64,000 bases of DNA from assembly GCA_009698815.1 (NCBI GenBank), contig WLPJ01000006.1, forward strand, positions 55,081 through 119,080, given 5' to 3'. The notes beneath the pieces are model-generated. The model saw only the letters and a list, made by a program, of their open reading frames with translations, searched no databases and was not told where the DNA came from. The translations under genes and the position numbers were made by a program. This document shows positions 11,696 to 51,436 of this stretch, in pieces (within the stretch, counting starts at the first letter, position 1; each line of letters begins with the position of its first letter). The stretch comes from Actinomycetota bacterium (GTDB lineage: Bacteria; Actinomycetota; Actinomycetes; Nanopelagicales; Nanopelagicaceae).

Positions 11696-13093
11696 CTATT
11701 TGGGTTGGAATTCTTTTCGTTTAATAGATTCTGCAATTAGTTTTCGTCCTTCTTCAAGGTTTGCAATCCAGCCAGCGCTGATCATCTGAATAATTAGATT
11801 ACCCATCACGGTTGCCTCAGCTGGTCCAGCAATCACGGGAAGACCTGTTACATCCGCAGTTAATTGATTTAGAAGATCATTTGACGATCCACCGCCAATA
11901 ATGTTTATTTCTTTTACTTTAACGTTAGCGGCATCTTCTAGTTCGCGAAGTGATTGCGCATAAGCGTCGGACAAACTGTCAAAGATACAGCGAGCAAATT
12001 CGGCGGGTGTATCAGGAACTTTTTGGTTAGTTTCTCGGCAATACGCAGCGATACGTTCCGGCATCGCACCAGGCTTGGCAAAGCGTGGATCGTTTGTGTT
12101 TATGATTTGTTCACGAGGAAGCTGGCGAGCGTCTTGGGTCAAATCTGCAGCGGTCAAAGTAAGACCTTGAGAGTTCCAATAGCGAAGAGATTCTTCGAGC
12201 AACCACATCCCTGATACATTTTTAATGAACCGGATGCGATCTGCCACGCCCGCTTCGTTGGTGATGTTGTATGAAAGCGCTTTCGCGTTAGTGATTGGCT
12301 TATCAAGCTCAAGACCAATTAGCGACCAAGTACCACTTGAAATATAGGCCGAATCTTTCGAAGAGAGAAGCGGTACTCCAGCAACTGCAGATGCTGTGTC
12401 ATGAGAACCAACTGCAACGACAGAGAGGCCATCTAGTTTGCCATGGCCTTTGATGTTGCCAATTTTTATCCCCGGCTTATGCAATGCAGGGAAGATAGAC
12501 CTGGGTATCTCAAGTTTGTCGATGAGTTCCCAATCCCATTCTTGCGAGTGAGCATTTAAGAGTTGTGTAGATGATGCGTTGGTAATGTCGTTGCTCTGCA
12601 CTCCAGAGAGAGCGTAGTTAAGTAAATCTGGGAGCATTAAGAAAGTAGCCGCGCCTTTGAGCGCCGCCGTATTTCGCGCAGCGTGCAGTTGGTAGGCGGT
12701 ATTAAAGAAGATAAATTGAATTCCGGTTCTCTGATAAATCCACTCTGCACCAAGTGAGTCTGAGATTGATTGCATCAAACCATCGGTTCGTGAATCTCGA
12801 TAGCAATAAGGTTCTTCGATTAGATTTCCCTGAGCGTCCAGTAATCCGTAGTCAACTGCCCAGGTATCAATACCGATAGAGATGATTTCACCAAACTCTT
12901 GCGCCTTTAATAAACCGGTCTTAACCTCATCGACAATCTTGGCCCATTCCCAGCGCAGCCCGCCATCTTCAGAAGCTTTCGCTTCGTGTTTAAAGCGATG
13001 GACTTCTTGAATCACGAGAGATCCTGAATCAAGAGACCCCACAGCTATGCGTCCGCTGGAGGCGCCAAGATCTATCGCTGCACAGAACTTCAT
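11696..13093 (-). CDS. rhaB: Rhamnulokinase
   Basis: AIDLGASSGR, GIDTWAVDYGLLD, CYRDSRT, SHDTASAV, SSGTWSL, GGGSSN, GPAEAT; lies in the rha cluster. Confidence 0.92.
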   Translation of the reverse strand: MKFCAAIDLGASSGRIAVGSLDSGSLVIQEVHRFKHEAKASEDGGLRWEWAKIVDEVKTGLLKAQEFGEIISIGIDTWAVDYGLLDAQGNLIEEPYCYRDSRTDGLMQSISDSLGAEWIYQRTGIQFIFFNTAYQLHAARNTAALKGAATFLMLPDLLNYALSGVQSNDITNASSTQLLNAHSQEWDWELIDKLEIPRSIFPALHKPGIKIGNIKGHGKLDGLSVVAVGSHDTASAVAGVPLLSSKDSAYISSGTWSLIGLELDKPITNAKALSYNITNEAGVADRIRFIKNVSGMWLLEESLRYWNSQGLTLTAADLTQDARQLPREQIINTNDPRFAKPGAMPERIAAYCRETNQKVPDTPAEFARCIFDSLSDAYAQSLRELEDAANVKVKEINIIGGGSSNDLLNQLTADVTGLPVIAGPAEATVMGNLIIQMISAGWIANLEEGRKLIAESIKRKEFQPK

Positions 13094-36753: not shown

Positions 36754-36827
36754 ACCGCTGTAGCTCATTTGATAGAGCACCCCACCAACTATGGGAAGTG
36801 TAGCGGGTTCGATTCCCGCCAGTGGTA
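36754..36827 (+). tRNA. Degenerate tRNA-like gene (apparent anticodon AAC)
   Basis: Acceptor ACCGCTG/CAGTGGT; TA; D arm GCTC-ATTTGATA-GAGC; anticodon arm CCCCA-CCAACTA-TGGGA; T arm GCGGG-TTCGATT-CCCGC. Non-canonical C33, T37, GA in the D loop and a 6-nt variable region. Confidence 0.6.
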
Positions 36828-36837
36828 CGCACACCAA

Positions 36838-36888: not shown

Positions 36889-37093
36889 ACTACCCGCAAT
36901 TAATATTGTGAATATCGGCAAACATATCCGCCTCTCTCCCGGGGCGCTCCAGCACATAATCACCACACACCTGACAGAAGGCATGAAAGTAATAAACCCC
37001 AAGCTCTTCCATCCATTTGTAGTCATAGATAAATGAGACAACAACGGCGCCAAAATCTGGCAGTGACCGATGCCCGCGCGCACGATGGGCCGC
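36889..37093. repeat. 205-bp direct repeat, left copy
   Basis: Matches 50869-51073 with 5 mismatches counted by eye (36900, 36904, 36905, 36966, 37076). Confidence 0.95.
36890..37093 (-). pseudogene. Duplicated 3' fragment of the hypothetical gene 50870-51436
   Basis: Encodes ...AHRARGHRSLPDFG...FCQVCGDY...HNINCG-stop; no start and no 5' part. Confidence 0.85.
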
Positions 37094-37152
37094 GCTTTGT
37101 GGAGCTGACGAATTTACAGGAAACGGTGCATTACGCCCTAAACAAACATCTG

Positions 37153-38343
37153 CTATTTCACTCCAAGAAGATGTTCAAGTGCTAACTGATTTAATCTGAC
37201 AAAAGCAAAACCTTTACCGTTGAAATATTCATCCGTGTTAAATTCTTCAAATGAACTTTGGTCCGCAATTAGTTCATTGTAATTTTCACCTGGGTTTAAT
37301 GTAGGTATACTAATTTCAGATACTCTTGAATTCCGTAACGCTTGCTGAACTGCTGGATCCGCACGGAATACTTTGGAGCGCTCCTTGAAAATCAGATAGT
37401 TCCTCATATTTGCACGTGCAGAATCCCAAACTCCTTCGTAATCTTCGGTACGACTTGGCTTGTAATCGAAATGTCGAGGACCGTCATAAGCTGGAGTTCC
37501 ATTAGGACCAGAATTTTCCAGAAGATCAATAAGCGTGAAAGCATTCATAAGATCGCCGTGTCCAAATACTAAATCCTGATCATATTTGATTCCCCGTTGC
37601 CCGTTTAGATCTATATGAAATAACTTCTTATGTTCGATGGCCTGGGCAATTCCTGCTGTGAAGTTTAATCCTGCCATTTGCTCGTGCCCGACTTCAGGAT
37701 TTACCCCAAAAAGCTCAGGTCGATCTAGCGTGTTAATAAAAGCTATTGCATGACCTAGCGTCGGCAATAATATGTCGCCCCGTGGCTCGTTTGGCTTTGG
37801 CTCAATTGCAAATCTAATGTCATATTTTTTGTCTGTTACATATTCACCAAAGATGTTTAGCGCTTCTCTATATCTTTCAATGGCACCCGAAACATTCTTA
37901 GCATGGTCGTATTCCGCACCTTCACGGCCACCCCACATTACAAATGTCTTTGCGCCTAATTCAGCGCCGAGGTCTAGCTGTCGAAATGCTTTCCGCAATG
38001 AAAAGCGGCGCACCCCGCGGTCATTGGAAGTAAATGCACCATCTTTAAAGACGGGAGCGCTAAAGAGGTTAGTGGTGACCATCGGTATCTCTATCCCGGT
38101 CTCTGCCAGGATTTTCTTTAGCCGTTGGATCATGGTCTCTCGCTGCTGATTTGATGAGCCAAACGGGAATAAATCATCATCGTGGAAGGTCAGGCCATAC
38201 GCCCCAATTTCGGCCAATTTGGTCACGACATCCTCTATTTCAAGCCCTTTTCGAGTCGGCCCCCCAAAAGGGTCGGTGCCGTTATACCCCACGGTCCATA
38301 GCCCAAAGGAAAACTTGTCAGCCTTGGTCGGTGTCAGATACAT
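37153..38343 (-). CDS. xylA: Xylose isomerase (Actinobacteria-type)
   Basis: [53 protein letters not shown]. Start ATG 38343 with a GAGG RBS. Confidence 0.95.
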
Positions 38344-38587
38344 CTTGGACCTCAATCCTTTTTCAATAATTTGTTGATTAAAACTACAAACTAGCATAAG
38401 GGGAAGAAATATGGAATTTACCGGATGCCGCCACAATTGAACATGAGCGTCGATTGCCCAAATTACCTTGAAATCAAGCCCCATAGGATGAGATTTGTCG
38501 TATTTTGCCTTATATAGGTAAATAGCGCCACTCAGGATTATTTAAGTTTTTGGCGAAACTTGCGATAAATACTTGCCAATCTCTTGC

Positions 38588-38609
38588 ATATGTTGTTGCT
38601 TCAACATAT
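38588..38609. promoter_or_regulatory. Candidate operator in the xylA/ABC divergent region
   Basis: Perfect inverted repeat ATATGTTG-N6-CAACATAT. Confidence 0.5.
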
Positions 38610-38689
38610 TGTTTGCTCAAATGAATCGAGAGGTCTCCCGGCTTCCAGGTCAAACTGAAGAAATTAGATAGAAAGGGATAGGTGCCAAA

Positions 38690-40297
38690 ATGAGTTTTCC
38701 CACTGCTTTATCGACTACTCGGTCGGCCCCGATCATCCTTGATATTCGCCAAATTAGTAAGAGTTACCAGGGAGTGGCTGCACTTGAAAACGCGAGTCTT
38801 CAGGTTCGAAAAGGTGAAATCCATGCCGTCTTGGGCGGCAATGGAGCTGGCAAATCTACTTTGATTGGAATCCTCTCCGGAGTTACGCAACCAGATTCTG
38901 GAGAGTTTCTTCTAGAAGGCTCTGCACTAGCACCTCGAAATCCAAGGGACGCGATTAAGTCAGGTATTACCACTATCTACCAAGAGCTCTCTTTGGTACC
39001 CGCACTTACGACACTTGAAAATATCTTTCTAGGCCGGGAATTAATTATTGAGCGAGCAGGCATGAAGGTATTGCTAGATCGCAAAAAAATGAAAAATGAA
39101 GTTATTGAACTTGCCCAAATATTTGGAATATCAAAGGATGAGCTTGATATCCCGATTAGCGAATTTGGAGCTTTGAAAAAGAAAGTCATCGAGATTGTTA
39201 AAGCTTTGACTTTTGATGCTCGGATCTTAATTCTAGACGAACCAACGTCTGGCTTGGAAGAAGAAGAACGCCTTCACTTATTTGATCATATGCGTAATTT
39301 GCGTAGCAGAGGTGTCGGTCTCATTTGGGTAACCCATCATTTAGATGAACTTCATGGCCTTGCAGACGTTGCCACCATTTTCCGTGACGGCAGAACGCTT
39401 GAATCTCTAAATTTAGAAAATTCCACAGTAGGAGAAATTACAAACTTAATGTTTGGAATCCAATCAAATGAAGCAGGCTTGAGAACCAAAAATGATCGTT
39501 TACAAAAAGATGATAAGTCCAATAGACCTGAGGTTCTAAGTCTGCATGCAGTAAGTCGAGCAGGCGTGCTTCGAGATATCTCTTTTAGCTTGCATGCTGG
39601 TGAAGTTATAGGGATATCTGGATTGGCGGGCGCCGGCAGAACAGAGTTAGCAAGAGTGATCATGGGAATTGATACCCGAACTTCTGGTCAGATTTTTTTA
39701 AAGGGCAAGGAAGTTAATTTCAAATCATCTGCTTTTGCCTACAAAGCGGGTATCGCAATGCTCCCGGAAGATCGGAAGCAACTAGGAATTATTTCTGGCT
39801 TATCGGTTGCAGAAAACATTTCAATTTCTAATTTGTCAAGTGTCAGCAGGTTCGGATTTATCATAAGCCGGAAAAAAGAACGCGAATTAGCGACCAAGTA
39901 TAAAGAGATACTTTCAATTCGAACTCCAAGCGTAAATCAAAAGATAAACAATCTCAGTGGCGGAAGCCAGCAAAAAGCAATTGTCGCAAGATGTCTAAAT
40001 TCCAAGCCATCAGTTTTAATCATTGATGAGCCAACACAAGGTGTTGATGTTGCAGCAAAAACCGAAGTCCACGAACTTATTCGAGATTTTACCTCGAAAG
40101 GTGGGGCTGCAATAGTGATTGCATCTGAAATCCAAGAACTTCTAGAACTTTCTCACGAGATTTTAGTGCTCAGAAATGGCTCCATAGTAGGAAGAATTGA
40201 AAATGTTCAGAACTCTATAGAAAAGTCCCGAGTAGTAGAAATCAAAGCGGAAGTACTTGCTTTATCTGCCGGAAAAAGGTTAAAAAATGAAATTTAA
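38690..40297 (+). CDS. Monosaccharide ABC ATP-binding protein (CUT2, RbsA-like)
   Basis: Two NBDs: GGNGAGKS, LDEPT, LSGGSQQK, DEPTQGVD. Confidence 0.93.
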   Translation: MSFPTALSTTRSAPIILDIRQISKSYQGVAALENASLQVRKGEIHAVLGGNGAGKSTLIGILSGVTQPDSGEFLLEGSALAPRNPRDAIKSGITTIYQELSLVPALTTLENIFLGRELIIERAGMKVLLDRKKMKNEVIELAQIFGISKDELDIPISEFGALKKKVIEIVKALTFDARILILDEPTSGLEEEERLHLFDHMRNLRSRGVGLIWVTHHLDELHGLADVATIFRDGRTLESLNLENSTVGEITNLMFGIQSNEAGLRTKNDRLQKDDKSNRPEVLSLHAVSRAGVLRDISFSLHAGEVIGISGLAGAGRTELARVIMGIDTRTSGQIFLKGKEVNFKSSAFAYKAGIAMLPEDRKQLGIISGLSVAENISISNLSSVSRFGFIISRKKERELATKYKEILSIRTPSVNQKINNLSGGSQQKAIVARCLNSKPSVLIIDEPTQGVDVAAKTEVHELIRDFTSKGGAAIVIASEIQELLELSHEILVLRNGSIVGRIENVQNSIEKSRVVEIKAEVLALSAGKRLKNEI

Positions 40298-41300
40298 GAA
40301 TTTCTTTTTTCGAAGTGTCTCCATAACTGGAGTTCCAATTTTCGGTCTCCTAATCTTAATCGTGGCACTTTTTCAATTTGTTGTACCAATTTTTAATGCA
40401 ACAGTTGGCGACTACATCACAAATCTTGTTCCTGTTCTTTTACTCACCGTGGGTGCCGCAATTGTGATAATTGGTGGATCTATCGATCTATCAATCGGTA
40501 CAGTTTGTGGATTAAGTGCGGGAATAACAATGTGGACATTGGCGTCTGGTCTTCCAACCGCTTTATCAATTTTACTAGGCGTAGCGACAGGTACATTTTT
40601 TGGACTTCTCAATGGATTTCTTATTACAAAATTTGGAATAAATGACTTCATCGCGACATTAGCGACACTCAATATTTCCGGGGGATTACTCATCGTGTTG
40701 AGCCAGGCTACAGAGCTCTACGGAGCAGAATCTGAGTTTTTTACCTCTTTGGTATACGGCAGTTTCTTTGGTATCCCCACCTCATTTTTCATCGCGGGAG
40801 CAATCATTCTCTTGATGCAATTTTTGTTGCTCAAAACAATCTTGGGCAGAAGAATTTTTGCAATGGGAAATAGTGGAGCCGCTGCAAATGTCGCGGGAAT
40901 CAATGTTCGCAATGTAAAACTAGCGACCTTCGTATTATCAGGGACTCTGGCTGGTTGTGCTGGCGTGCTTTTGGCTTCAAGACTTGGTGGAGTTCAAGCC
41001 TTTCTGGGTCTTGGCTACGAATTTACGGCAATCGCAGGTGCGGTCGTAGGTGGCGTAAGTCTGGCAGGTGGACGAGGTTCGGCGGCGGCTGCCCTGGCTG
41101 GTGGTCTCTTCATCGGAACATTGGCACAAGGATTGCAACTTATAGGTGTCGAGCCAATCTTTTTCGGAATTGTGAGTGGTTTAGCACTGATTATCGGCGT
41201 CATCTTTGACCAAAAAATTCAGGATATTGGTCAATTGCGTTCGAGATTTGATAGCCGTGTTTTAGCACAACCTCCTCGAAAGGAGGGAGATCATGGCTAA
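40287..41300 (+). CDS. Monosaccharide ABC permease (CUT2)
   Basis: GSIDLSIG, FIATLA, GNSGAAANVAGI, YEFTAIAGAVVGG. Confidence 0.9.
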   Translation: MKFKNFFFRSVSITGVPIFGLLILIVALFQFVVPIFNATVGDYITNLVPVLLLTVGAAIVIIGGSIDLSIGTVCGLSAGITMWTLASGLPTALSILLGVATGTFFGLLNGFLITKFGINDFIATLATLNISGGLLIVLSQATELYGAESEFFTSLVYGSFFGIPTSFFIAGAIILLMQFLLLKTILGRRIFAMGNSGAAANVAGINVRNVKLATFVLSGTLAGCAGVLLASRLGGVQAFLGLGYEFTAIAGAVVGGVSLAGGRGSAAAALAGGLFIGTLAQGLQLIGVEPIFFGIVSGLALIIGVIFDQKIQDIGQLRSRFDSRVLAQPPRKEGDHG

Positions 41301-42294
41301 TCAAAGGTTTAACATTTCGATGAAAAAATTTTTGTCGGATCCTATTTTAGGTGTAATTATATTATTACTTCTCGTTGGTGGAGTTGCCTCATTTACTGTT
41401 GAAGTTTTCTTTACCTTACAAAACTTTACAAATTTCTTGAGTGGCAGCTATTTTGTGATGTTGTTAGCGATGGGAATGACCGTAGTTCTTATATCCGGCG
41501 GTATTGATTTATCTATTGGCGCCGTCATGGCCCTCTGTGCAGGAATTGTTGCAAAATTGGCCTTGCAAGGAATGTCGGTACCCTTAGTAATAGTTTGCGC
41601 ACTAGCAGTCGGCGCTTTCGTTGGTTGTCTCAATGGACTTCTTGTCACAGTTGTTGGCTTACCTGACTTCATAGCAACATTGGCAATGTCGGCTTTTGCC
41701 ACTGGAATTCTATTCATCTGGACTAAAGGCACCCCGATCGTGGGCTATATGGATGAGACTTACAAGCAAATCGGTGGGCTAGCTCCGATTTATCGCGAAG
41801 TGACAGTTCCTATGGTGATAGCAATAGTCGTTGCATTCGCTTTGGGAGCGATGTTGAAAAAAACCAAATTTGGAGTTCATCTTTTTTCAGTAGGAAGTAA
41901 CAGATTAGCGACGCGACAATCTGGAATAAATGTTACAAACATACGAATCTTGGCTTACGTGATTTCTGGAGTTTGTGCTGCTCTCAGTGGCATCATCATG
42001 GCTGGTCGAAATACCACGGTGCCACCAGATCTAGGGGGCGGTTATGAGGTTCTTGCAATAGCCGCCGCACTCATCGGAGGCGCAAGTCTGATGGGTGGTC
42101 GCGGACGAATACTGGGAGCAATACTGGGTGAAGTAGTACTTGCCATGACGATAAATATCATCAACCTTTTAGGTGTTCCGTCAAGCTATCAGAAAATTTT
42201 TATTGGTGGAATTTTGCTACTGGCAGTTTTAGTGAACCAGCTTGTCATCTCCTCGCGAACGAAAATATTGATGCGAAGTACAAATAAAAAATAA
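41293..42294 (+). CDS. Monosaccharide ABC permease (CUT2), second
   Basis: GGIDLSIG, PDFIATLA, GSNRLATRQSGI, YEVLAIAAALIGG. Confidence 0.9.
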   Translation: MANQRFNISMKKFLSDPILGVIILLLLVGGVASFTVEVFFTLQNFTNFLSGSYFVMLLAMGMTVVLISGGIDLSIGAVMALCAGIVAKLALQGMSVPLVIVCALAVGAFVGCLNGLLVTVVGLPDFIATLAMSAFATGILFIWTKGTPIVGYMDETYKQIGGLAPIYREVTVPMVIAIVVAFALGAMLKKTKFGVHLFSVGSNRLATRQSGINVTNIRILAYVISGVCAALSGIIMAGRNTTVPPDLGGGYEVLAIAAALIGGASLMGGRGRILGAILGEVVLAMTINIINLLGVPSSYQKIFIGGILLLAVLVNQLVISSRTKILMRSTNKK

Positions 42295-42365
42295 TAGATT
42301 TCTTCTACGTCGGGTAGAAGAATGCACTACAAGGATCATGAAAATGATCGAATGAAAGGATCGGA

Positions 42366-43514
42366 ATGAAAAGTACTATAAAAACAAAGACTTTGGTATT
42401 AGCTGTTATTGCCTCATTGGTGACCTTAACAATGACCGGAAGTGCCGCAAATGCCATAGGAACATTAAAACAAGACGCTCTAACAGGCACTTCGGCGACA
42501 GTTGACACTGCAGCTACAGATGCGGCAATCCGTAAATTGGTAAACGGTCGGACAATTAAGCTCGGCTTTGCTCCTCCGATCCTTTCTGAGGCTTACACCA
42601 TTGCACAACAGGGTGCATGGAACCAGATGAAAGATTACGAGACTCGGTACGGAGTAAAGTGGGTCTGGACAGAGGAAGCACCGCTGAATAATGCCCACTC
42701 CGGTGTGGAAACAACGGGCTTCATTCAGAACTATGTTGCCAAGAAGTATGACGCAGTGTTCGTATGCTCTGCTGCTCCGGCTGCAGTCATGCAACAGCTT
42801 TATAAGCAAGGTTCTGCGAAGGGTGTTGAGTTCTACCAGTTTAACTCAACGGAGCAGTTGAATCAGAAATCTCAAGCAACTGATGCAACAGCTGGCTTAT
42901 CTAGCGTGTCAAACATCAGTTATGACAATCGTTGGCAGTCCGGTGCTTTAGCAGCGCAATACATCGCTAAGGAACTTAAAGGAAAAGGCGAAATTATTAT
43001 GATCCTTGGGCCAGCAGGATCTGACTGGACAAAACTTCGCGAGCAGGGATTTAGAGCTGTCATTAAGAAGTTCCCTGGTCTTAAGATTGTTGGAGCCGCT
43101 GACGGTGGATACGTTCGCGATAAAGGCTTGACTGCTGCGGCAGACTTGTTGACCAAGTATCCAAAAATTAACGCTATCTACGGCGAAAATGAAGATATGG
43201 CACTTGGAGCATCAGCAGCAATCGACGCCGCGCGCTTGAAGCACTGGGATGGCAAGTCAGGAATCATCACTATCGGTGCTGATGGACTTGTTTCCGGTAT
43301 GGACGAAATCCGTAAAGGCAATCTGACTGCAACAGTAAATGTTGGTTATGCCGATATGGGTCGCACCATGATTCGTACCATGTTCGCACACAAAGTACTC
43401 GGCATGGATGTCGCTAAATTCATTCGAGTTCCAACAGTGATCGTCGACAAGAGCAATGTCGATATCTTCCAATCACAAATCAAGGCTGAGTTAGCCACAA
43501 AGGTTAAGTACTAG
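42366..43514 (+). CDS. Monosaccharide ABC substrate-binding protein (RbsB-like)
   Basis: Signal ending ANA; DNRWQSG, REQGF, AIYGENEDMALGA, IGADG. Confidence 0.88.
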   Translation: MKSTIKTKTLVLAVIASLVTLTMTGSAANAIGTLKQDALTGTSATVDTAATDAAIRKLVNGRTIKLGFAPPILSEAYTIAQQGAWNQMKDYETRYGVKWVWTEEAPLNNAHSGVETTGFIQNYVAKKYDAVFVCSAAPAAVMQQLYKQGSAKGVEFYQFNSTEQLNQKSQATDATAGLSSVSNISYDNRWQSGALAAQYIAKELKGKGEIIMILGPAGSDWTKLREQGFRAVIKKFPGLKIVGAADGGYVRDKGLTAAADLLTKYPKINAIYGENEDMALGASAAIDAARLKHWDGKSGIITIGADGLVSGMDEIRKGNLTATVNVGYADMGRTMIRTMFAHKVLGMDVAKFIRVPTVIVDKSNVDIFQSQIKAELATKVKY

Positions 43515-43520
43515 CCAGTA

Positions 43521-43563
43521 GTAGACGCCTGGCGCCGTAGTAATTACGACGCCAGGCATCTAC
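43521..43563. terminator. Long stem-loop after the binding-protein gene
   Basis: 19-bp stem with two C-A mismatches and a 5-nt loop. Confidence 0.55.
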
Positions 43564-43599
43564 ACCCTCAATAAAAAAGGAGTTAGAAGGGGAAATGAA

Positions 43600-45297
43600 A
43601 TGAACAAGTCGGGCACGTTAGATGCGGTTGATGTAGTCATTGTTGGATTAGGTGCTGGTGGTGGTCCCGCGGCAAAGGTATTGAGCGAGGCGGGTTACAC
43701 GGTTATTGGATTTGATAAAGGACCATGGTTGCGTCACGAAGAACACTATTCCGGAGACGAACTTAAGTTCCAAAACCGTAGCTACTTATGGCCAGATGTA
43801 AAACTTATGCCCCGCACTGTTCGCAGCGATGTAAATTCCAAAGCTAGAATTTTCAATTTCTCGCCTGTTCCCTCAAATGTTGGCGGCGGAACTAGCCACA
43901 TGGCTGGATGGACGCCAAGACCTAGACCGTCGGATTTTATTTTTAGAAGTCTCCATGGTGATTTACACGGCGCAAGTTTGGCTGATTGGCCATACCGATA
44001 CGAACATTTGGAACCATATCTCACCAAAGTTGAATGGGAGTATGGAATTTCAGGCTTAACCGGTGCTGAGAAAGGGGCAGGTTTTAGAAGCAAGCCTTAT
44101 CCAAGTGCTCCACTTCCTCCAACTCGATTTGGAAAAGCTTTCTATGACGCTTGCAAAAAACTTGATATTAACGCGTTCCCATTGCCGATGTCTCACATCA
44201 CCAAAGACAATGCATTGGGGCGAGAAGCAATAAATCGCACAAGTTTCTGGAATCAATATGGAGATCCTACGGCGACTCGATCAAGCGTAGCCACGACATT
44301 CATACCTGACGCGATCAAAACAGGAAATTTCGAAGTAAGGGCAAATTCCTTTGTAAAAGAAGTAATTGTTGATGATCAAGGGGTCGCAAAAGGCGTTATC
44401 TATGTAGATGAAGATGGCATAGAATTTCGACAAGAAGCGCGCGTCGTAATTCTTTCATTAGGCTCCATTGAATCTGCAAGATTGATGTTACTTTCTAAAT
44501 CTCGCAGATTCCCAGATGGGTTGGCTAATGATTCAGGACTAGTTGGAAAGAATGCGACATTCCACGAATACATTTTTGCAGTAGGACTTTTTGATAAAGA
44601 CTTTACTGATCCACTCTATGGATTTACCGGAAATTATCAAAGCGGTGGGTCAATGGAATTCTATGAAACAGATGAGAATCGTGGCCATATCGGTGGTGGC
44701 ATTATTGCAACCACACAAATTGGTCAACCAATTAACATGATTATGCCAGGCAAGCCTAGTTGGGGTCAGGCTGCAAAAGATTCGGATCGAGATTTCTTCA
44801 ATTACTCAATGAAAATAGGTTTCATCCTTCAGGATATGCCTCAGGAAAGTAATCGAGTTGATTTGGATCCTGATGTGAAAGATATGTGGGGGCTTCCCGT
44901 TGCACGAATTACAAATAAGCCTCACATAAACGACACGGCGATGAGCCGCTGGCAGATCAACAAAAATGTCGAAATCCTTGAGGCAGCCGGCGCTATTCGC
45001 ACTATGCCGGTTTATCTGGGCGATGAATTCACTGGAAATTCCTGCCATCAGCAAGGTTCTGTGCGTATGGGAGTAGATCCTAGAAAGTCTGTACTAAATG
45101 AATGGGGTCAAGCTCATTCTGCTGAGAACGTTTTTGTATTAGATGGTGCAGGTTTTCCAACCGCAATGGGAGTAAATCCAACTCTAACAATCATGGCTCA
45201 CTCTTGGCGCTGTGCTGATTACATCGCCAAAGTTTATCTAAAGGGCAGAACTGAGAAAACTGTTCTTGAACCGCTTAAAAATTTAGGGAGGAAATAA
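43600..45297 (+). CDS. GMC family flavoprotein oxidoreductase (gluconate 2-dehydrogenase alpha-like)
   Basis: VGLGAGG, GGGTSHMAG, HQQGSVRMG, NPTLTI (His/Asn catalytic pair). Confidence 0.9.
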   Translation: MNKSGTLDAVDVVIVGLGAGGGPAAKVLSEAGYTVIGFDKGPWLRHEEHYSGDELKFQNRSYLWPDVKLMPRTVRSDVNSKARIFNFSPVPSNVGGGTSHMAGWTPRPRPSDFIFRSLHGDLHGASLADWPYRYEHLEPYLTKVEWEYGISGLTGAEKGAGFRSKPYPSAPLPPTRFGKAFYDACKKLDINAFPLPMSHITKDNALGREAINRTSFWNQYGDPTATRSSVATTFIPDAIKTGNFEVRANSFVKEVIVDDQGVAKGVIYVDEDGIEFRQEARVVILSLGSIESARLMLLSKSRRFPDGLANDSGLVGKNATFHEYIFAVGLFDKDFTDPLYGFTGNYQSGGSMEFYETDENRGHIGGGIIATTQIGQPINMIMPGKPSWGQAAKDSDRDFFNYSMKIGFILQDMPQESNRVDLDPDVKDMWGLPVARITNKPHINDTAMSRWQINKNVEILEAAGAIRTMPVYLGDEFTGNSCHQQGSVRMGVDPRKSVLNEWGQAHSAENVFVLDGAGFPTAMGVNPTLTIMAHSWRCADYIAKVYLKGRTEKTVLEPLKNLGRK

Positions 45298-45300
45298 AAT

Positions 45301-46062
45301 ATGATCTCGAAATCTGAGTGGGAAATTGTTCCCCTAACTATCGATCCGGACTCAAGTAAAAAGCTTTTCTTTACTGATCATGAGTGGGAAACTATTGAAG
45401 CCGCAGCCGCACGAATCATTCCAACTGATCATGATCCTGGAGCAAAAGAAGCACGAGTAATCGTCTTCATCGATCGTTACCTATCAGGAATTGACTACGT
45501 GTATGCCGCGGCAGATGGAAGTGGTTTTTTGCGAATGTCTGGACGAGATGCGACTGCCGCTAGAGTCAGTAATGAAATATTTAAGGCTATGTACCGTGAA
45601 GGAGTCAAAGACTTAGATCACTTAGCGGGTGAATTTGGATCCAAAAATTTTAAGGAGAGTCCTGCAGAGACTCAAGATAGAATTTTGGAGAAGTTAAGTG
45701 GTAGGCCGAAACCAGAACCTATTCGTTTTGATATCCACGAAGTTTATTACTCTCGCCTTCAAGGAAATACCGATCAAGATAAAACTTTCTTCGACACTCT
45801 TTGTTTGCATGTTCGCCAAGGTTTTTATTCTGATCCGGTATATGGCGGTAACAAAGATCAAATTGGCTGGAAAGTCATCGGCTTCCCTGGTCCAAAGTCC
45901 CTCAAAGACACAATTGATGGTACCTACACAACTGACCCGTACTTCGTCCATGACGTGAGTTGGCCAGAACTCCTGTTGGACTTCAAGGGCGTTGCAGTAT
46001 GCAAAGTTTCGTGTGCCACCGAAGGAGGTGTCTGCTGCGGGAAATTAGAGATAGAGAGTTAG
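45301..46062 (+). CDS. Gluconate 2-dehydrogenase subunit 3 (gamma)-like protein
   Basis: AAAARIIPTD..PGAKEARV..FIDRYL, GFYSDPVYGGN, GWKVIGFPG; no twin-Arg signal. Confidence 0.88.
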   Translation: MISKSEWEIVPLTIDPDSSKKLFFTDHEWETIEAAAARIIPTDHDPGAKEARVIVFIDRYLSGIDYVYAAADGSGFLRMSGRDATAARVSNEIFKAMYREGVKDLDHLAGEFGSKNFKESPAETQDRILEKLSGRPKPEPIRFDIHEVYYSRLQGNTDQDKTFFDTLCLHVRQGFYSDPVYGGNKDQIGWKVIGFPGPKSLKDTIDGTYTTDPYFVHDVSWPELLLDFKGVAVCKVSCATEGGVCCGKLEIES

Positions 46063-46116
46063 CACCGGGGATAAAAAAGAAAATAAATTAATTTCAAACT
46101 AACGAAAGGGCATAAA

Positions 46117-46845
46117 ATGTCAACGCATCAAGAGAAACTGGATAAGTATGTGGATCGTTCCAACAGAATTATCCCAAACAAGATTGATCTAAAGCGAACT
46201 GTTGTTCACTGCTTGGATATTCAAAATCTTTGCCTATCCAAGAAAGGCTCTGACTACGTAGAAAGCGTGGGAGGAGCGCCTTCAGGAGAAGAAACGTTAG
46301 TTCAAGCAAAAAAGGTTTTGGATTTAGCGAGAGAAAAAGGAATCACTGTCAATTGGTCTATGTGGGGTATGGACCCAAATGGCTATGACATCGGAATTTG
46401 GGGATTGAAGTATCCATCTTGGCGTAAGCCAGATTCACCTTTTAATCACGGAACATTCGATGGTGCCCTCTGTGACGGGTTTGTACCGGCTAAAGGTGAG
46501 GCTCTATTGAAAAAACATCGTAATAGCAGCTTCTTTGAAACTGCATTTAATTCATGGCTACTCGAGGCAAAATGTGAATATTTAGTTATCAATGGATCAT
46601 CTACTGGTAATTGCGTACCCACAACTGCACGCGATGGTTTTGAATTGGGATATAAAGTCATCGTACTTGCCGACTCTGGAACTGCGATTCCTCTAAATCG
46701 TGGAGGTCGCAATCCAGCTTATGACAAAGATACTCCAGAAGGTTACGGTCAATACTGGGAAGGCTTGCGCAACATGCAAGCTCAATACGCTGATGTCATG
46801 TCAACAGCAGAGTTTATTGATCTTGTAAATAATTCATCAAATTGA
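46117..46845 (+). CDS. Isochorismatase/cysteine hydrolase family protein
   Basis: LDIQN, KHRNSSF, STGNCVPTTARDG: Asp-Lys-Cys triad pattern. Confidence 0.85.
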   Translation: MSTHQEKLDKYVDRSNRIIPNKIDLKRTVVHCLDIQNLCLSKKGSDYVESVGGAPSGEETLVQAKKVLDLAREKGITVNWSMWGMDPNGYDIGIWGLKYPSWRKPDSPFNHGTFDGALCDGFVPAKGEALLKKHRNSSFFETAFNSWLLEAKCEYLVINGSSTGNCVPTTARDGFELGYKVIVLADSGTAIPLNRGGRNPAYDKDTPEGYGQYWEGLRNMQAQYADVMSTAEFIDLVNNSSN

Positions 46846-46860
46846 TGGTGGGGGAGGTGA

Positions 46861-46894
46861 GCTACCTCGAAGTTGTTTACAACTTCGAGGTAGC
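46861..46894. terminator. Perfect 16-bp inverted repeat between the hydrolase and AKR genes
   Basis: GCTACCTCGAAGTTGT-TT-ACAACTTCGAGGTAGC. Confidence 0.6.
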
Positions 46895-46928
46895 AAACTT
46901 TCAGTGAATTGGAAGGAGGTGTTTGCGT

Positions 46929-47927
46929 ATGTCTAAAATTTCAGTAAGAGCGAAATTTGGTGGACAGAACTGGGATTCAACGATCTTGGGTTTTGGAACC
47001 GTGCCTCTAGGTAATTTTGGCAAGCCTATGGATTCTTCCACTGCTCATAATTTGATTGAAAGAGCCTGGGATGACGGAGTGCGTTTTTTCGATACTGCCC
47101 CTATGTATGGACACGGGCTAGCGGAATATCGTTTAATGGATTTTCTACTCAACAAGAAAAGGGAAGATTATCAATTAGTAACAAAGGTAGGGAGAACGTT
47201 ACTTCCAGCAAAACCTGGAACTTTCGATTCTGCTCCTTGGGTTGATACACCCCCATTTAAAATTGAATTTGATTACTCTTATGACGGCGTTATGCGTCAA
47301 GTTGAAGATAGCCTGCAGAGATTAGGCACATACTATTTAGATGTCGTATTGATTCACGACACAGATAGATGGACTCATGGAGATGATTACCAAGCAAGAT
47401 TCGATGAAGCGGTTGCTGGGGCAGCTAAAGCGCTTGTCAAATTGAGAGATGAAAAAGTAGTAAAGGCTATAGGGTTTGGAGTAAATGAAGTTGATGTTTG
47501 TTTGAGCGCTTTAGATCAAGTAGATGTCAATGCATTTTTAATCGCTGGCACTTACACATTGTTAAATCAAAGTGCTGGCCGGGAATTGTTACCAAGGTGC
47601 CATGCTCGCGGAGTAGGCATTATCAACGGTCGAGTCTTCGGTTCTGGGATTCTAGCAACCGGTTCAGCAGAGGGTGCCAAATTTGATTATGCGGTTGCTC
47701 CTCGGGAGATTGTCGCAAAAGTGCAAAAATTTGAAGAAGTTTGTAAATCATATGAAATCTCATTAGGTGCTGCAGCAATTCAATTTGCAGCAAGGGGACC
47801 TGCGATAGCAAACGTTTGTATAGGATCGCGAACCATTGAACAACAAACTGAGAGCTATGCCTGGTTTGAACAATCAATACCAGATGAATTTTGGGCAGAG
47901 TTAAAGAAAAAGCAATTGATCGAATAG
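46929..47927 (+). CDS. Aldo/keto reductase (AKR15-like: L-fucose/D-threo-aldose/pyridoxal dehydrogenase group)
   Basis: LGFGTVPLGN, FDTAPMYGHG, TKVGR, FDYSYDG, IHD. ATG 46929 fits the GGAGG spacing. Confidence 0.88.
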   Translation: MSKISVRAKFGGQNWDSTILGFGTVPLGNFGKPMDSSTAHNLIERAWDDGVRFFDTAPMYGHGLAEYRLMDFLLNKKREDYQLVTKVGRTLLPAKPGTFDSAPWVDTPPFKIEFDYSYDGVMRQVEDSLQRLGTYYLDVVLIHDTDRWTHGDDYQARFDEAVAGAAKALVKLRDEKVVKAIGFGVNEVDVCLSALDQVDVNAFLIAGTYTLLNQSAGRELLPRCHARGVGIINGRVFGSGILATGSAEGAKFDYAVAPREIVAKVQKFEEVCKSYEISLGAAAIQFAARGPAIANVCIGSRTIEQQTESYAWFEQSIPDEFWAELKKKQLIE

Positions 47928-47968
47928 CAGCACCACTAATACCAATAACAATGGAGAGGAACTAGAAA

Positions 47969-48367
47969 ATGTTTACGGAGTTAAAACATATTGCGCAGTT
48001 AGCGGAAGAGACTGCTAGTAAAATGGGGCTTGGAGTCGTAGTTAGTATCGTGGATGTCCATGGAAATGCGGCGTTGCTTCATCGGATGGATAAGGCACCT
48101 ATGCATTCACTAGAGATGGCTTTTAGAAAAGCCTATACCGCGGCTACTTTCAACGTTGTCACCGAAGACCTAACTGAAAAAGTTCAGCCGAATGCACCAC
48201 TATTTGGGCTTGCTGTTAATTCCGGAAGCAAATTGATTGCATTCGGTGGCGGTGCTCCATTTATAGTTTCAACAGGTGAACGTTACGGAATTGGAATTTC
48301 AGGTGGTACGACTGAAGAAGATATTGACATAATGCGCGCTGCAGTATCTGCCTTTAATAAACGTTAA
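47969..48367 (+). CDS. GlcG/HbpS family heme-binding protein
   Basis: VSIVDVHGN, RKAYTA, FGGGAP, GIGISGGT...D. Confidence 0.88.
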   Translation: MFTELKHIAQLAEETASKMGLGVVVSIVDVHGNAALLHRMDKAPMHSLEMAFRKAYTAATFNVVTEDLTEKVQPNAPLFGLAVNSGSKLIAFGGGAPFIVSTGERYGIGISGGTTEEDIDIMRAAVSAFNKR

Positions 48368-48368
48368 A

Positions 48369-49394
48369 TTATTCTGCGGAGAATTTATGAATCGTTTTGT
48401 GAAAATATTCCTGATCCGGTTTTAAGACTATCGATTGTAAGTCTGGCAAGACCTGGTTATCTATCACTCGCTGTGTTTCGATGCAGATCGAATTGCCTTG
48501 ACCATATTTAATTCCGTGCCTACCCTTCAAATCTCCCAAACGATTTGCTGAGTAAACTTGCAAGGAAGGTTCAGTGGTTGTTATTGTCATTTTTCGGCCA
48601 CTGGTTGGGTCATAAAGTATTGCTGACTCTGTTAATTCGCCAGTCGTTTTATTCGAAAGAACGAAAGTATTATCAATACCTGGCCAAGGTTCAGTTGGAT
48701 TCGTAGGTAGTGAATGAGCAATTTTGGTAAGCTTTTTAAAATCCATCCCAGATTCGGCACAAGATAAGTACCCACCTGCAGGTAGCAATTGAGCATCCAT
48801 CTTGATTATTTTGTCCGCATTAATCTGCAATTCGTGATCTAGAACGCTAGTTGCACCTGCATCATGAAGGTTCCAATAGATGTGATTTGTTATATTTACA
48901 GGAGTATCTAACGAGGCTTTGGCTGAATATTCGAAAATCAATTCATTTATATTTGTGAGAGAACAAGTAAGCGCAACGGACAAATCTCCCGGATATCCGC
49001 CTTCTCCAGATTTACTCTCATATGAGAACTGCACTGCTTGAGATCCTGCAACTTCACATAATTCGCTCGACCAGAAAACTCTATCAAGTGATTTCTCTTT
49101 ACCTCCGTGTAAGTGGTTTCCCCCTTCATTGACCATCAATTGAAATCTAAGGCGGCCTCCATTGAAAACACCCTTGGAAATTCTTCCCGCAACCCGCCCA
49201 AGAGTGGCACCAAAATAGTTTCCAACATTTATTACATACTCTTCATGAGTATTAAATCCAAGCACAACATTAGAACAATTACCGATCCTGTCTGGGACCA
49301 TTAACTCAATAAGTCGCGCTCCAAAATTGGAAAAAGTGGCCTTCATTCCATTGGAGTTCTCAATTACAAATTCTTTGTTCAGAATCCGAACCAC
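48369..49394 (-). CDS. galM: Aldose 1-epimerase (mutarotase)
   Basis: GRVAGRI, NHLHGG, GYPG, NITNHIYWNL, CIETQ. Confidence 0.9.
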   Translation of the reverse strand: MVRILNKEFVIENSNGMKATFSNFGARLIELMVPDRIGNCSNVVLGFNTHEEYVINVGNYFGATLGRVAGRISKGVFNGGRLRFQLMVNEGGNHLHGGKEKSLDRVFWSSELCEVAGSQAVQFSYESKSGEGGYPGDLSVALTCSLTNINELIFEYSAKASLDTPVNITNHIYWNLHDAGATSVLDHELQINADKIIKMDAQLLPAGGYLSCAESGMDFKKLTKIAHSLPTNPTEPWPGIDNTFVLSNKTTGELTESAILYDPTSGRKMTITTTEPSLQVYSANRLGDLKGRHGIKYGQGNSICIETQRVIDNQVLPDLQSIVLKPDQEYFHKTIHKFSAE

Positions 49395-49406
49395 CTTTTC
49401 TATGGC

Positions 49407-50618
49407 TTAATTAATCTTACTCTTAGTAAATTCTGGACCCGCAGGGTCATATAAAAAATTCATGAATACCAGTTCTGCCGCCCCAAGGACGACTTGGTTT
49501 ACGCCAAGTGCTGCGCGACTGATTCGGACAGACTCGTAACTTGGTTTTAAAGTGTTTATTGCAACAATTTTTTGAACTTTCTTGGTGTCCATACTGTAAA
49601 TAGTTCCCAAAAATCCACCAAGAATAATCAATTCGGGATTTAGCAAGTTAATAAAGTTTGAAATCGCCAATGCCAGATACTCCAACTGTCTTCCGACTTC
49701 ACTTAATACTGCATGAGACTTGGAGGTGCGTAGGGCATAATCAAATTGATCATAATCTGCAATTTTTAAATTTAGTAGAGATAGAAGCTTCTCTCTCGAG
49801 ACCTCTGCTTCCACCGTGCCCACCACATTGGCAGAATCCACACCACCAGTTAATGCAACTCTGGTATGGCCCATCTCGCCTGCATAACCTTTATGACCTC
49901 TCATTAATTGCCCACCGGAAACGATTCCGCCAGCAATACCGCTAGAACCGCCATTGATAAAGACCATATCTTTTATGCCAACACCAGAGCCAAATACCTG
50001 CTCAGCTAAAGTACTTAAGAACGCTTCATTTCCCGCCGAGGTTTTAAACCCTGTGGAGCTTTCAATAAGCTGAATTATAGATACTTCTTTCCATTCCAGG
50101 TGGTGCGAAGATCCAATTAATCCATCTTCTTTCCGAATTAACTCCGGTATAGCAAGACCGATTCCAATAATTTGGAAATTTTCTTTGGAAACACTAGTTA
50201 GACCATCAATGATTGCATTTGTAATTTTTATTGTTTCAGCAATAGTAGGAGCACCAGTTGTTTCAAATCTTGATTGTTTGTGAACATAACCTCCAAGCCC
50301 AATTACCCCAATATTAACTGCATCACTTTCTGGGTTCACAGCTATCGCTATTGCATTTTGATTTGCCACCACCACCGTACTTGGTCGTCCAACTCTTTTG
50401 TTTTTCTTATCCGAAATTTCATTTACTAAACCCTGTGAAGTCAATTCTCCGATTAGTGCAGAGATTGTTGATCGATTAAGCCCAGTTCTTATGGAAAGAT
50501 CTGATCTGGATATAGAGCGTTCATGATGGACGATCTTTAGAACTGTTGAAATATTGAACCGTCTTAAGTCGTCGAGATTATTACCTGCGGACAAATTTCC
50601 CGGTGGCGTAAGCTTCAA
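49407..50618 (-). CDS. ROK family transcriptional regulator (XylR-like)
   Basis: SRSDLSIRTGLNRSTIS HTH, GRPS, GYAGEMGH; the CxCG Zn motif is absent (GGVDSANVVGTVE). Confidence 0.9.
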   Translation of the reverse strand: MKLTPPGNLSAGNNLDDLRRFNISTVLKIVHHERSISRSDLSIRTGLNRSTISALIGELTSQGLVNEISDKKNKRVGRPSTVVVANQNAIAIAVNPESDAVNIGVIGLGGYVHKQSRFETTGAPTIAETIKITNAIIDGLTSVSKENFQIIGIGLAIPELIRKEDGLIGSSHHLEWKEVSIIQLIESSTGFKTSAGNEAFLSTLAEQVFGSGVGIKDMVFINGGSSGIAGGIVSGGQLMRGHKGYAGEMGHTRVALTGGVDSANVVGTVEAEVSREKLLSLLNLKIADYDQFDYALRTSKSHAVLSEVGRQLEYLALAISNFINLLNPELIILGGFLGTIYSMDTKKVQKIVAINTLKPSYESVRISRAALGVNQVVLGAAELVFMNFLYDPAGPEFTKSKIN

Positions 50619-50868
50619 ATTTCCTCCGGTTAATTGCCGTAGATTTTGAACAATAGAATCTTTTAAAAAGTCTGTTAAAGCATCAATAATAGCATGGGCT
50701 GGATCTCGAAACTAGTCAATGTAGACCAGATTATTGGGACTACACGGGCAATTTATCGGGACTCGCATATGATTTTTTGACACTTATAGTTTCGAACACT
50801 TGATACAAATTTTTAATGATCCGAAAGTATCGACAGTTCGCATTAGTGTTTATTTAAAGTTAACGGAG

Positions 50869-51073
50869 ACTACCCGCAACTAACGTTGTGAATATCGGCA
50901 AACATATCCGCCTCTCTCCCGGGGCGCTCCAGCACATAATCACCATACACCTGACAGAAGGCATGAAAGTAATAAACCCCAAGCTCTTCCATCCATTTGT
51001 AGTCATAGATAAATGAGACAACAACGGCGCCAAAATCTGGCAGTGACCGATGCCCACGCGCACGATGGGCCGC
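50869..51073. repeat. 205-bp direct repeat, right copy
   Basis: Begins 1 nt beyond the stop codon of 50870-51436 and matches 36889-37093. Confidence 0.95.
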
Positions 51074-51436
51074 ATCTAGCTCAAGCCCCGCAAGCCCACC
51101 AACTTCGGCCACTGCATCCATCTCCACGACCAACCCACACGTGCAGTGCCATTGCTTACCCGCATAGTTAACGTAACCCCAATGCCATTTCTGGTGCTGC
51201 CACGAATTCAAATTCGCATAATGCAGCCACGCCTTATAGCGCCCGTACTTACGCATTCCGGATTTGCCATCCATCTTGCTGTGCAGTTCCTCTAGCTTTT
51301 CATTTGAAATTGAGACATCGACATAACTCTTCTTATTTCGCTTAGACATAACAAACCAGCCCTTAATGGACCTCATATAGAGACCCGCTCTTCTGGCGGT
51401 GTCTGTCATCGCCAGCAGGTCTTCCTTTAGAACCAC
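50870..51436 (-). CDS. Hypothetical phage-like protein with Cys/His (putative Zn) motifs
   Basis: HCTCG...HRARGH and FCQVYG...HNVSCG; start uncertain (MTDT, MRSI or MSKR). Confidence 0.7.
   Translation of the reverse strand: MVLKEDLLAMTDTARRAGLYMRSIKGWFVMSKRNKKSYVDVSISNEKLEELHSKMDGKSGMRKYGRYKAWLHYANLNSWQHQKWHWGYVNYAGKQWHCTCGLVVEMDAVAEVGGLAGLELDAAHRARGHRSLPDFGAVVVSFIYDYKWMEELGVYYFHAFCQVYGDYVLERPGREADMFADIHNVSCG

Follow-up and report, generated by a model that had tools for sequence, protein, structure and literature searches.

In the oxidise-rearrange-reduce routes of bacterial sugar catabolism, such as those for levoglucosan (LgdA-C), the Escherichia coli YcjQRS route and the 3-keto-glycoside and C-glycoside routes, an importer and an initial oxidation are combined with a triosephosphate isomerase (TIM) barrel, an NAD(P) reductase and a sugar-sensing regulator. 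The actinobacterial xylose regulon is composed of a ROK-type XylR, XylA, XylB and a mutarotase. This article concerns a block of twelve genes, from xylA to a gene for a ROK regulator, that shares features with both and combines known kinds of system, namely a sugar catabolic island, an alpha/gamma dehydrogenase dependent on flavin adenine dinucleotide (FAD) and a xylose regulon. The block lies within a stretch of 64,000 nucleotides (the window; contig WLPJ01000006.1 of assembly GCA_009698815.1, positions 55,081 to 119,080) from an acI/Planktophila-type actinobacterium, the assembly of which (G000, the source genome) amounts to 1.35 Mb in 22 contigs.

The acI Actinobacteria have very small genomes and are among the most abundant freshwater bacteria. 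Genes in the window were called from a listing of open reading frames (ORFs) and from Pfam/NCBIfam profile scans. Related clusters were surveyed by comparing the GMC-family dehydrogenase of the block with one genome per species and labelling the neighbouring genes by tblastn; clusters with a GMC protein at least 78% identical to the window copy are here called type A, and those with a GMC protein 60-69% identical type B. The family sample comprised 151 genomes, the class-wide sample used for the binding protein 401 genomes (E <= 1e-40), and the phylogeny of xylA is a maximum-likelihood tree with support given as pairs such as 100/100. A full-text search of a literature library for the gene combination found no publication there that describes the cluster.

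Compared with the LgdA-C/YcjQRS-type routes, the make-up of which is matched exactly by a related cluster of Mesorhizobium, the island has an alpha/gamma GMC pair as its oxidase rather than a Gfo or CarA-type GMC protein, its TIM barrel is a genuine XylA, and a cysteine hydrolase and a DUF336 protein are extra. With the actinobacterial xylose regulon it has ROK, GalM and XylA in common, joined by XylB in fuller versions of the cluster, but the window copy is devoid of xylB and Gfo, its transporter is not XylFGH and five extra enzyme genes stand in the operon. Type B resembles the upper Weimberg/Dahms and the semi- and non-phosphorylative Entner-Doudoroff pathways in adding to the common core an enolase-superfamily aldonate dehydratase, a KDG-kinase-like PfkB, Eda and DhaKL; the dehydrogenase, however, is FAD-linked and made of two subunits, type A has neither dehydratase nor aldolase, and no such activity is known from the family that would supply the presumed lactonase. 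Finally, the FAD-dependent glucose and fructose dehydrogenase complexes share with the window pair the GMC fold, a His/Asn pair and an adjacent Gluconate_2-dh3 small subunit, whereas the window pair lacks a twin-arginine translocation (Tat) signal, the 3Fe-4S cysteines and a cytochrome c gene, and is predicted to be cytoplasmic, behind an ABC (ATP-binding cassette) importer, instead of periplasmic.

A Horizontally Acquired Island beside tRNA-Val

Positions 37094-50868 are one horizontally acquired catabolic island, inserted beside tRNA-Val by a recombination that duplicated 205 nt of the neighbouring gene. A repeat search revealed two direct repeats of this length (Table 1), 98% identical and spaced 13,980 nt apart, which bracket exactly the genes from xylA to ROK. 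The right repeat coincides with the 3' end of orf188, an intact gene of 188 codons, and the left one is a remnant, in which an ORF of 40 amino acids (36890-37012) repeats the C-terminus of the orf188 product. The tRNA-Val gene lies 60 nt to the left of the left repeat, and three congeners have an empty site in which tRNA-Val is followed, after 61 nt, by intact orf188. The locus thus displays the defining features of a tRNA-gene genomic island, i.e., direct repeats at both ends, a tRNA gene at one border and an empty site in relatives. No integrase gene was found inside the island; since the repeat is made of host sequence, the arrangement would fit a single-crossover homologous (Campbell-type) insertion. 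According to ARAGORN, the anticodon of the tRNA-Val is AAC here and in the congener G539 and GAC in G549; valine tRNAs with A34 are unusual in bacteria.

A type A GMC gene occurs in a single genome of the family sample, the source genome itself. The island xylA nests, with support of 100/100, in a clade formed by xylA genes of Microbacteriaceae and Nocardioides that are linked to the cluster, and the native xylA genes of acI bacteria, including the genome's own copy on contig C6, fall outside this clade; judged by its place in the tree, the island xylA is a xenolog that came with the island. The G+C content of the island (42.8%) is similar to that of the host, compared with 58-69% in the other carriers, a match which points to long residence in low-GC genomes. 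The island also occurs on two low-GC metagenome contigs, its proteins being 89-100% identical there, and on the metagenome contig L134 an orf188 homologue follows ROK. On another, L133 (Ga0114967_10003527), the ATPase is 94% identical, the products from the permeases to the hydrolase 97-100% and those from the aldo-keto reductase (AKR) to ROK 74-90%, a drop in identity that suggests recombination inside the island between lineages.

Conservation of the Cluster in Types A and B

The type A set was found at 12 genome loci and on five metagenome contigs, and because of this recurrence a grouping of the genes by chance is nearly excluded. The cluster search shows the middle genes of the island conserved with xylA and the ABC system in several arrangements, in keeping with a preliminary description of the window that had read them as parts of one pathway. 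The hosts, which span at least four actinobacterial families, include Pseudarthrobacter, Microcella, Microbacterium, Salinibacterium, Cryobacterium, Nocardioides and several metagenome-assembled genomes (MAGs); three high-GC metagenome contigs are also of type A. In its full order, the cluster consists of the four ABC genes, GMC, small subunit, isochorismatase-family hydrolase, AKR (not always present) and GlcG, with GalM and ROK on the opposite strand, followed by Gfo/Idh/MocA, xylA and xylB. In these fuller loci Gfo, xylA and xylB form one co-directional run, and the FGGY gene scores 386 bits, above the XylB cut-off. Relative to this order, the window version has xylA at the opposite end and has lost Gfo and xylB; overall, xylA adjoins the type A cluster in at least three distinct gene orders. 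AKR, GalM, Gfo and xylA are each absent from some type A loci (AKR from five), and ROK is present in every locus long enough to show it. Either AKR or Gfo is kept in 12 of the 13 type A loci with enough flank, and in the window as well, the exception (L039) having neither within 10 kb. GlcG is 64-79% identical among type A loci, and no dehydratase or aldolase gene was found in any of the 17. One type A cluster (L089, CAWIKY010000004.1) belongs to a MAG labelled Alphaproteobacteria, with a xylA nested in Microbacteriaceae (99/93 with Microcella), and is explained either by faulty binning or by a transfer in the recent past.

Type B, which has a wide distribution among Actinomycetota, Alphaproteobacteria and Bacilli, retains the ABC system, the GMC pair and the isochorismatase-family protein. 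To these it adds a GntR/FCD regulator, a DJ-1/PfpI protein, an enolase-superfamily acid-sugar dehydratase, Eda, a KDG-kinase-like PfkB and DhaK/DhaL; the model nearest to the dehydratase is that of the archaeal arabinonate dehydratase, with a score under its cut-off. Two acI relatives also carry type B (L033, G119:C1:382000-401999, and L035, G066:C55), in the order DhaKL, four ABC genes, GntR, isochorismatase, DJ-1, GMC, small subunit, enolase-superfamily dehydratase, Eda and PfkB, which by gene content looks like an FAD-linked route of the semi- or non-phosphorylative Entner-Doudoroff type.

Looser relatives occur in rhizobia. The Mesorhizobium loti plasmid pML2037 (L128, 338065-347925) encodes a GMC protein 50% identical to that of the window, with ROK, a TIM-barrel 'sugar phosphate isomerase/epimerase', a CUT2 ABC system, a small subunit and Gfo as neighbours, and Sinorhizobium fredii NGR234 carries two GMC pairs and a GlcG homologue on pNGR234b (L129). 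As these rhizobial GMC/gamma pairs have no Fe-S cysteines and stand with other partners, the cytoplasmic clade appears broader than types A and B.

The GMC/gamma Pair

The solved proteins nearest to the GMC subunit are the large subunit of Gluconobacter fructose dehydrogenase (3e-32) and the alpha subunit of the FAD-dependent glucose dehydrogenase (FAD-GDH) of Burkholderia cepacia (5e-31), an enzyme that oxidises C1 of glucose and belongs to the same enzyme family as an FAD sorbitol dehydrogenase (PMC6719666). The window protein aligns over its full length with 6a2u_B and 7w2j_A, and its His483 and Asn526 align with the catalytic His/Asn pair of GMC-fold FAD dehydrogenase subunits (PMC6719666). 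In place of the 3Fe-4S region containing Cys212/213/218/222 of the B. cepacia enzyme, it reads NRTSFWNQYGDPTATRS, all four cysteines being replaced, and these cysteines are likewise absent in type B and in the rhizobial relatives. The FAD fingerprint stands at the very N-terminus and there is no signal peptide. The small subunit begins 3 nt past the GMC stop codon, with an N-terminus (MISKSEWEIV) that aligns with all homologues; no Tat signal was seen in its first residues, MISKSEWEIVPL, which have neither an RR motif nor a hydrophobic stretch, and the same holds for 60 homologues. No cytochrome domain was detected among the 12 island genes, and none was labelled in type A or B loci. By these sequence features, the pair is a cytoplasmic offshoot of the FAD-dependent glucose/fructose dehydrogenase complexes.

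The preliminary description had related the GMC pair to the 3-oxidation that starts glycoside cleavage, a relation that the comparison with solved structures does not support: the match to 7qf8 covers residues 408-544 only, at 1.6e-10, as against about 1e-32 for the fructose and glucose dehydrogenases. Full-length similarity to glycoside 3-oxidases of the CarA/PsG3Ox type is lacking, and the pyranose oxidase model TIGR02462 scores 43 bits against a cut-off of 545. The small subunit of the window ends in a cysteine-rich tail, CKVSC...CCG (45990-46062), that is absent from about 60 type A and B homologues; an Fe-S or metal-binding role of this tail was therefore set aside, the tail being unique to the window copy and not part of a conserved mechanism.

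The Importer and its Binding Protein

The ABC ATPase remains under the equivalog cut-offs of AraG, YtfR, XylG and RbsA. The AKR15 (pyridoxal dehydrogenase) label that the preliminary description gave to the AKR was considered together with a vitamin B6 reading of the locus, and this reading was dropped, the ATPase of the vitamin B6 transporter model test scoring 364 bits against a cut-off of 670, lower than on the sugar models. The binding protein has a Sec signal that ends in AANA, and no lipobox. Close homologues of it were found in only four of the class-wide genomes, where the best hit stands beside a GMC gene each time, and within the family sample xylA occurs in 64 genomes and this ABC system in only one. 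That all four close homologues stand next to this GMC argues for an importer with a dedicated substrate and against a general xylose porter, in line with the earlier suggestion of a substrate other than plain xylose.

The AlphaFold (AF2) model of the binding protein has a predicted local distance difference test (pLDDT) score of 85. Its best fold matches are ribose-, allose-, galactofuranose- and glucose/galactose-binding proteins, and further ones are fructose-, arabinose-, inositol- and xylitol-binding proteins, all at identities of 26% or less; mycobacterial xylitol- and threitol-binding CUT2 proteins hold ranks 26 and 46. Because the protein folds like monosaccharide-binding CUT2 proteins, the model indicates a ligand of monosaccharide size, and the N- or C-glycoside substrate that had been suggested for the locus, if bulky, is unlikely. 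An assignment of the ligand itself was attempted from sequence and fold searches and abandoned, only these generic relatives being returned.

Hydrolase, AKR and DUF336 Protein

The isochorismatase-family cysteine hydrolase invariably accompanies the GMC pair in both cluster types, and its D34/K132/C166 triad does not vary between the copies of type A and type B. Its nearest solved relative is RutB (1e-10), and none of the equivalogs RutB, BiuH and PncA was reached; the exact sequence of the protein is found on 70 public contigs. A true isochorismatase (vinyl-ether) reaction on a glycal or enolpyruvyl sugar was considered and is unlikely, since the amidase-type cysteine is kept. The nearest solved relatives of the AKR are plant L-galactose dehydrogenases (2e-26), in an aldose-1-dehydrogenase-like branch, and its D57/Y62/K88/H145 tetrad is invariant in eight type A copies. 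The DUF336 family, to which the GlcG/HbpS-like protein belongs, includes the formaldehyde (aldehyde) sensor EfgA, and its members occur with aldehyde-forming pathways (PMC8153426).

Xylose Genes in the Island and Elsewhere in the Genome

The island xylA matches TIGR02631 with 632.8 bits (cut-off 447) over model positions 2-382 of 382. As this match begins at residue 51 of the ORF and a Shine-Dalgarno-like GGAttGAGG precedes the ATG at 38343, the true start probably lies there. No xylB was found between 37 and 51 kb, an absence on which the preliminary description had laid emphasis. An FGGY kinase gene elsewhere in the window (11720-13075, a 467-aa frame) scores far under the XylB cut-off and probably belongs to a rhamnose operon. 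A profile search of the source genome nevertheless identified xylB on contig C1 (G000:C1:27533-28816; 388 bits, cut-off 380), isolated between genes for an EamA transporter and a phosphofructokinase, and a second, native xylA on C6 (G000:C6:21155-22306), 62% identical to the island copy and solitary among genes for actinorhodopsin, ArgRS and lysA. Scattered xyl genes therefore appear normal in this streamlined genome, so that the absence of xylB from the window is uninformative about the pathway, and fuller versions of the cluster have xylB directly after xylA. No XylF-type protein above cut-off was found in the source genome, and the locus lacks the joint presence of xylB and a XylF-type binding protein that characterizes a canonical xylose regulon.

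Other genes of possible relevance to sugar acids are dispersed over the source genome. A pentonate-type IlvD/Edd dehydratase is encoded on contig C18 (G000:C18:92491-94218; L132:5491-7218, minus strand; NF004784, 840 bits), divergently from genes for MDR and SDR dehydrogenases; it scores 784 bits on the L-arabinonate dehydratase model (cut-off 882) and, from these matches, could act on xylonate or arabinonate. The IlvD/Edd gene on C16 was ruled out as a xylonate dehydratase because it is a true IlvD, and the C21 copy sits in the ilv operon, leaving only the C18 copy as pentonate-type. Contig C16 also holds a run of three genes (G000:C16:9196-12771; L126:3196-6771, minus strand) for an SDR resembling glucose 1-dehydrogenase, a partial match to D-apionate lactonase (245 bits, cut-off 750) and a Gfo/IolG-like dehydrogenase, which may be another oxidative sugar module. 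The small contig C10 bears three enolase-superfamily (MR_MLE_C) genes within 5 kb (G000:C10:2103-6772).

Gene Inventory of the Island

All twelve genes from xylA to ROK that had been named in the preliminary description were recovered at the same positions by the ORF listing and the profile scans (Table 1). The plus-strand run from the ABC ATPase to GlcG has intergenic gaps of -11 to 85 nt. GalM scores 268 bits on the galM_Leloir model, under that model's cut-off. The divergent promoter region between xylA and the ABC genes contains a perfect 8-6-8 palindrome, ATATGTTG-N6-CAACATAT, a candidate operator by its sequence and position. It is the sole match in the window, yet 33 of 100 shuffled sequences also yield one, so that the count is not significant, and no second copy was found upstream of ROK.

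Table 1. Features of the island and of its borders, in window coordinates.
Feature	Position	Strand	Basis or remark
tRNA-Val, anticodon AAC	36754-36828	+	ARAGORN; landmark of insertion hot spot
Left 205-nt direct repeat	36889-37093	.	Remnant copy of orf188 3' end
xylA, xylose isomerase, actinobacterial type	37153-38484	-	TIGR02631
Palindrome, candidate operator	38588-38609	.	Read from sequence
Fused two-domain ABC ATPase (CUT2)	38690-40297	+	ABC_tran matched twice
CUT2 permease 1	40287-41300	+	BPD_transp_2, 1.9e-34
CUT2 permease 2	41293-42294	+	BPD_transp_2, 2.4e-42
Secreted sugar-binding protein	42366-43514	+	Peripla_BP_4
GMC dehydrogenase large subunit, FAD-dependent	43600-45297	+	GMC_oxred_N, GMC_oxred_C
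Gamma-like small subunit	45301-46062	+	Gluconate_2-dh3 (PF13618), 7e-28
Isochorismatase-family cysteine hydrolase	46117-46845	+	PF00857
Aldo-keto reductase (AKR)	46923-47927	+	PF00248
GlcG/HbpS-like (DUF336) protein	47969-48367	+	PF03928, 3e-27
GalM, aldose 1-epimerase (mutarotase)	48369-49394	-	PF01263, 3.9e-67
ROK regulator, XylR-like, N-terminal winged helix	49407-50618	-	ROK and MarR-type helix-turn-helix
Right 205-nt direct repeat	50869-51073	.	Inside intact orf188 (50870-51436, minus strand)

A Possible Pathway and its Alternatives

The reading that we favour, tentatively, is that a xylose-related monosaccharide would be oxidised to a reactive carbonyl sugar, hydrolysed, reduced and fed to XylA and XylB. 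The importer would take up a monosaccharide-sized sugar of the xylose family, e.g., an epimer or a lightly modified xylose, and the soluble FAD enzyme would oxidise it to a reactive carbonyl sugar, e.g., a keto-aldose or an osone. The cysteine hydrolase would then perform an acyl-type hydrolysis of this carbonyl intermediate or of its substituent, and the AKR, or Gfo/Idh/MocA in other hosts where AKR is absent, would form D-xylose or D-xylulose from the product by NAD(P)H-dependent reduction. The DUF336 protein may bind or sense the aldehyde intermediate; GalM would supply the appropriate anomer, the island XylA would isomerise, and the chromosomal XylB encoded on C1 would phosphorylate xylulose, the ROK protein presumably acting as local repressor. 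In the type B variant, DJ-1 might convert the keto-aldose, without cofactor, to an aldonate. A keto-aldose intermediate is suggested, by analogy, because the variable partners of the core handle carbonyls (AKR and the DUF336 protein in type A, a DJ-1/PfpI protein of glyoxalase-III/deglycase type in type B) and because DUF336 proteins accompany aldehyde-forming pathways (PMC8153426). It is also suggested by the near-constant retention of an NAD(P) oxidoreductase (AKR or Gfo), by the co-directional run of Gfo with xylA-xylB and by the oxidise-rearrange-reduce layout of the Mesorhizobium relative.

Several points weigh against this reading. Nothing in the sequences fixes which carbon the GMC pair would oxidise, and in one of the two solved proteins closest to it the site of oxidation is C1 of glucose (PMC6719666). 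The nearest solved relatives of the AKR are aldose 1-dehydrogenases and not ketoreductases. To suit its dehydratase, the product in type B must be an aldonic acid, for which C1 oxidation followed by a lactonase would be simpler, and an oxidise-reduce route to xylulose would be redundant beside XylA unless a sugar other than xylose is the substrate or the route provides high-affinity, irreversible capture. The weakest link is the role of the cysteine hydrolase, the sole invariant partner, and this role is the main gap in every model but the lactonase one.

That last model is a plain D-xylose regulon with an oxidative branch, in which the ABC system would import xylose, XylA and XylB would consume part of it, the GMC pair would be a cytoplasmic xylose 1-dehydrogenase and the hydrolase a new kind of xylonolactonase, xylonate would pass to a pentonate dehydratase encoded elsewhere, and AKR and GlcG would handle downstream aldehyde fragments. 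We regard it as rather unlikely, although it draws on the C1 oxidation by the related B. cepacia FAD-GDH (PMC6719666) and on type B, which ties the core to an aldonate-type dehydratase, Eda and KDG kinase and thus makes an aldonate the core product there. Moreover, the set of ROK, GalM, xylA and xylB is that of a classical xylose regulon, no other transporter adjoins, and the source genome holds the pentonate-dehydratase-type IlvD/Edd on C18. Yet none of the 17 type A loci has a dehydratase or aldolase, the binding-protein family is rare and tied to GMC rather than to xylA (64 against 1 of the 151 family genomes for xylA and the ABC system), and Gfo, encoded in the operon of xylA-xylB, would be a rival of XylA for xylose. 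We know of no lactonase in the isochorismatase family, which counts against a xylonolactonase, and a literature search found no paper on one. The cleavage of a small xyloside or N-linked xylose derivative, as first proposed for this locus, would have the GMC pair oxidise C3, the amidohydrolase remove or split the aglycone in the cleavage and the keto-sugar be reduced to xylose. Glucoside 3-dehydrogenases are members of the same alpha/gamma family of enzymes, small galactosides are carried by some CUT2 systems, the hydrolase retains its amidase-type triad, and an oxidise-cleave-reduce logic fits the AKR and Gfo partners as well as the Mesorhizobium layout. We nonetheless consider this model unlikely: the GMC protein is remote from known glycoside and C-glycoside 3-oxidases, which it matches at the C-terminus only, there is no TIM-barrel lyase or DUF1080-type hydrolase such as the known 3-keto-glycoside routes have, the only TIM barrel being a XylA above the equivalog cut-off, and the best structural matches of the binding protein all carry free monosaccharides or polyols. 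Of the original interpretation, the coherent conserved unit with a probably dedicated substrate is thus retained; the argument from the missing xylB is given up, and a bulky glycoside is improbable.

If xylitol or another polyol were imported and oxidised by the GMC pair to D-xylose or a pentulose, with GalM, XylA and XylB acting next, the link between GMC, GalM and XylA would be accounted for, an FAD sorbitol dehydrogenase is a member of the same enzyme family (PMC6719666), and the mycobacterial xylitol- and threitol-binding proteins figure among the fold matches. Such a pentitol route is improbable in our view, because it leaves the hydrolase without a role, polyol-binding proteins are not the top fold matches, and the aldonate branch of type B would require two more oxidations. 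ROK regulators, too, usually sense sugars, which speaks against a polyol. The absence of AKR, GalM, Gfo and xylA each from some type A loci could also mean that a xylose regulon merely neighbours an unrelated redox operon; this is highly improbable, for the linkage persists through at least three rearrangements in four families, the direct repeats enclose exactly xylA to ROK, and a redundant xylA moved with the block. Ranked in order, our preferred reading is followed by the xylose 1-dehydrogenase/lactonase model, glycoside cleavage and the pentitol route.

Implications for acI Actinobacteria and Beyond

It is conceivable, though short of probable, that types A and B represent an undescribed cytoplasmic sugar pathway. 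In it, an Fe-S-free GMC/gamma pair would work with a cysteine hydrolase whose target is a lactone, amide or ester derived from a sugar and with aldehyde handling by a DUF336 protein, and would thereby open an epimer or derivative of xylose that is inaccessible to xylose isomerase and to the known oxidative routes. If true, the hydrolysis of a sugar lactone, amide or ester would be a new activity for the isochorismatase family. With the GMC pair, moreover, a cytoplasmic branch is defined within the FAD sugar dehydrogenases, a group employed in glucose sensors, and this branch, without Fe-S cluster, export or cytochrome, raises the question of the electron acceptor. Carriers of the cluster that can be cultured, and in which the pathway is open to test, include Pseudarthrobacter, Microbacterium, Cryobacterium ruanii and Salinibacterium. 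Considered with the related high-GC clusters of Actinobacteria from soil, cold and marine habitats and with type B in Alphaproteobacteria and Bacilli, the block points to a sugar route for which the literature library searched holds no description, and a 14-kb block that is kept and exchanged in the very small genomes of acI bacteria likely pays its way.

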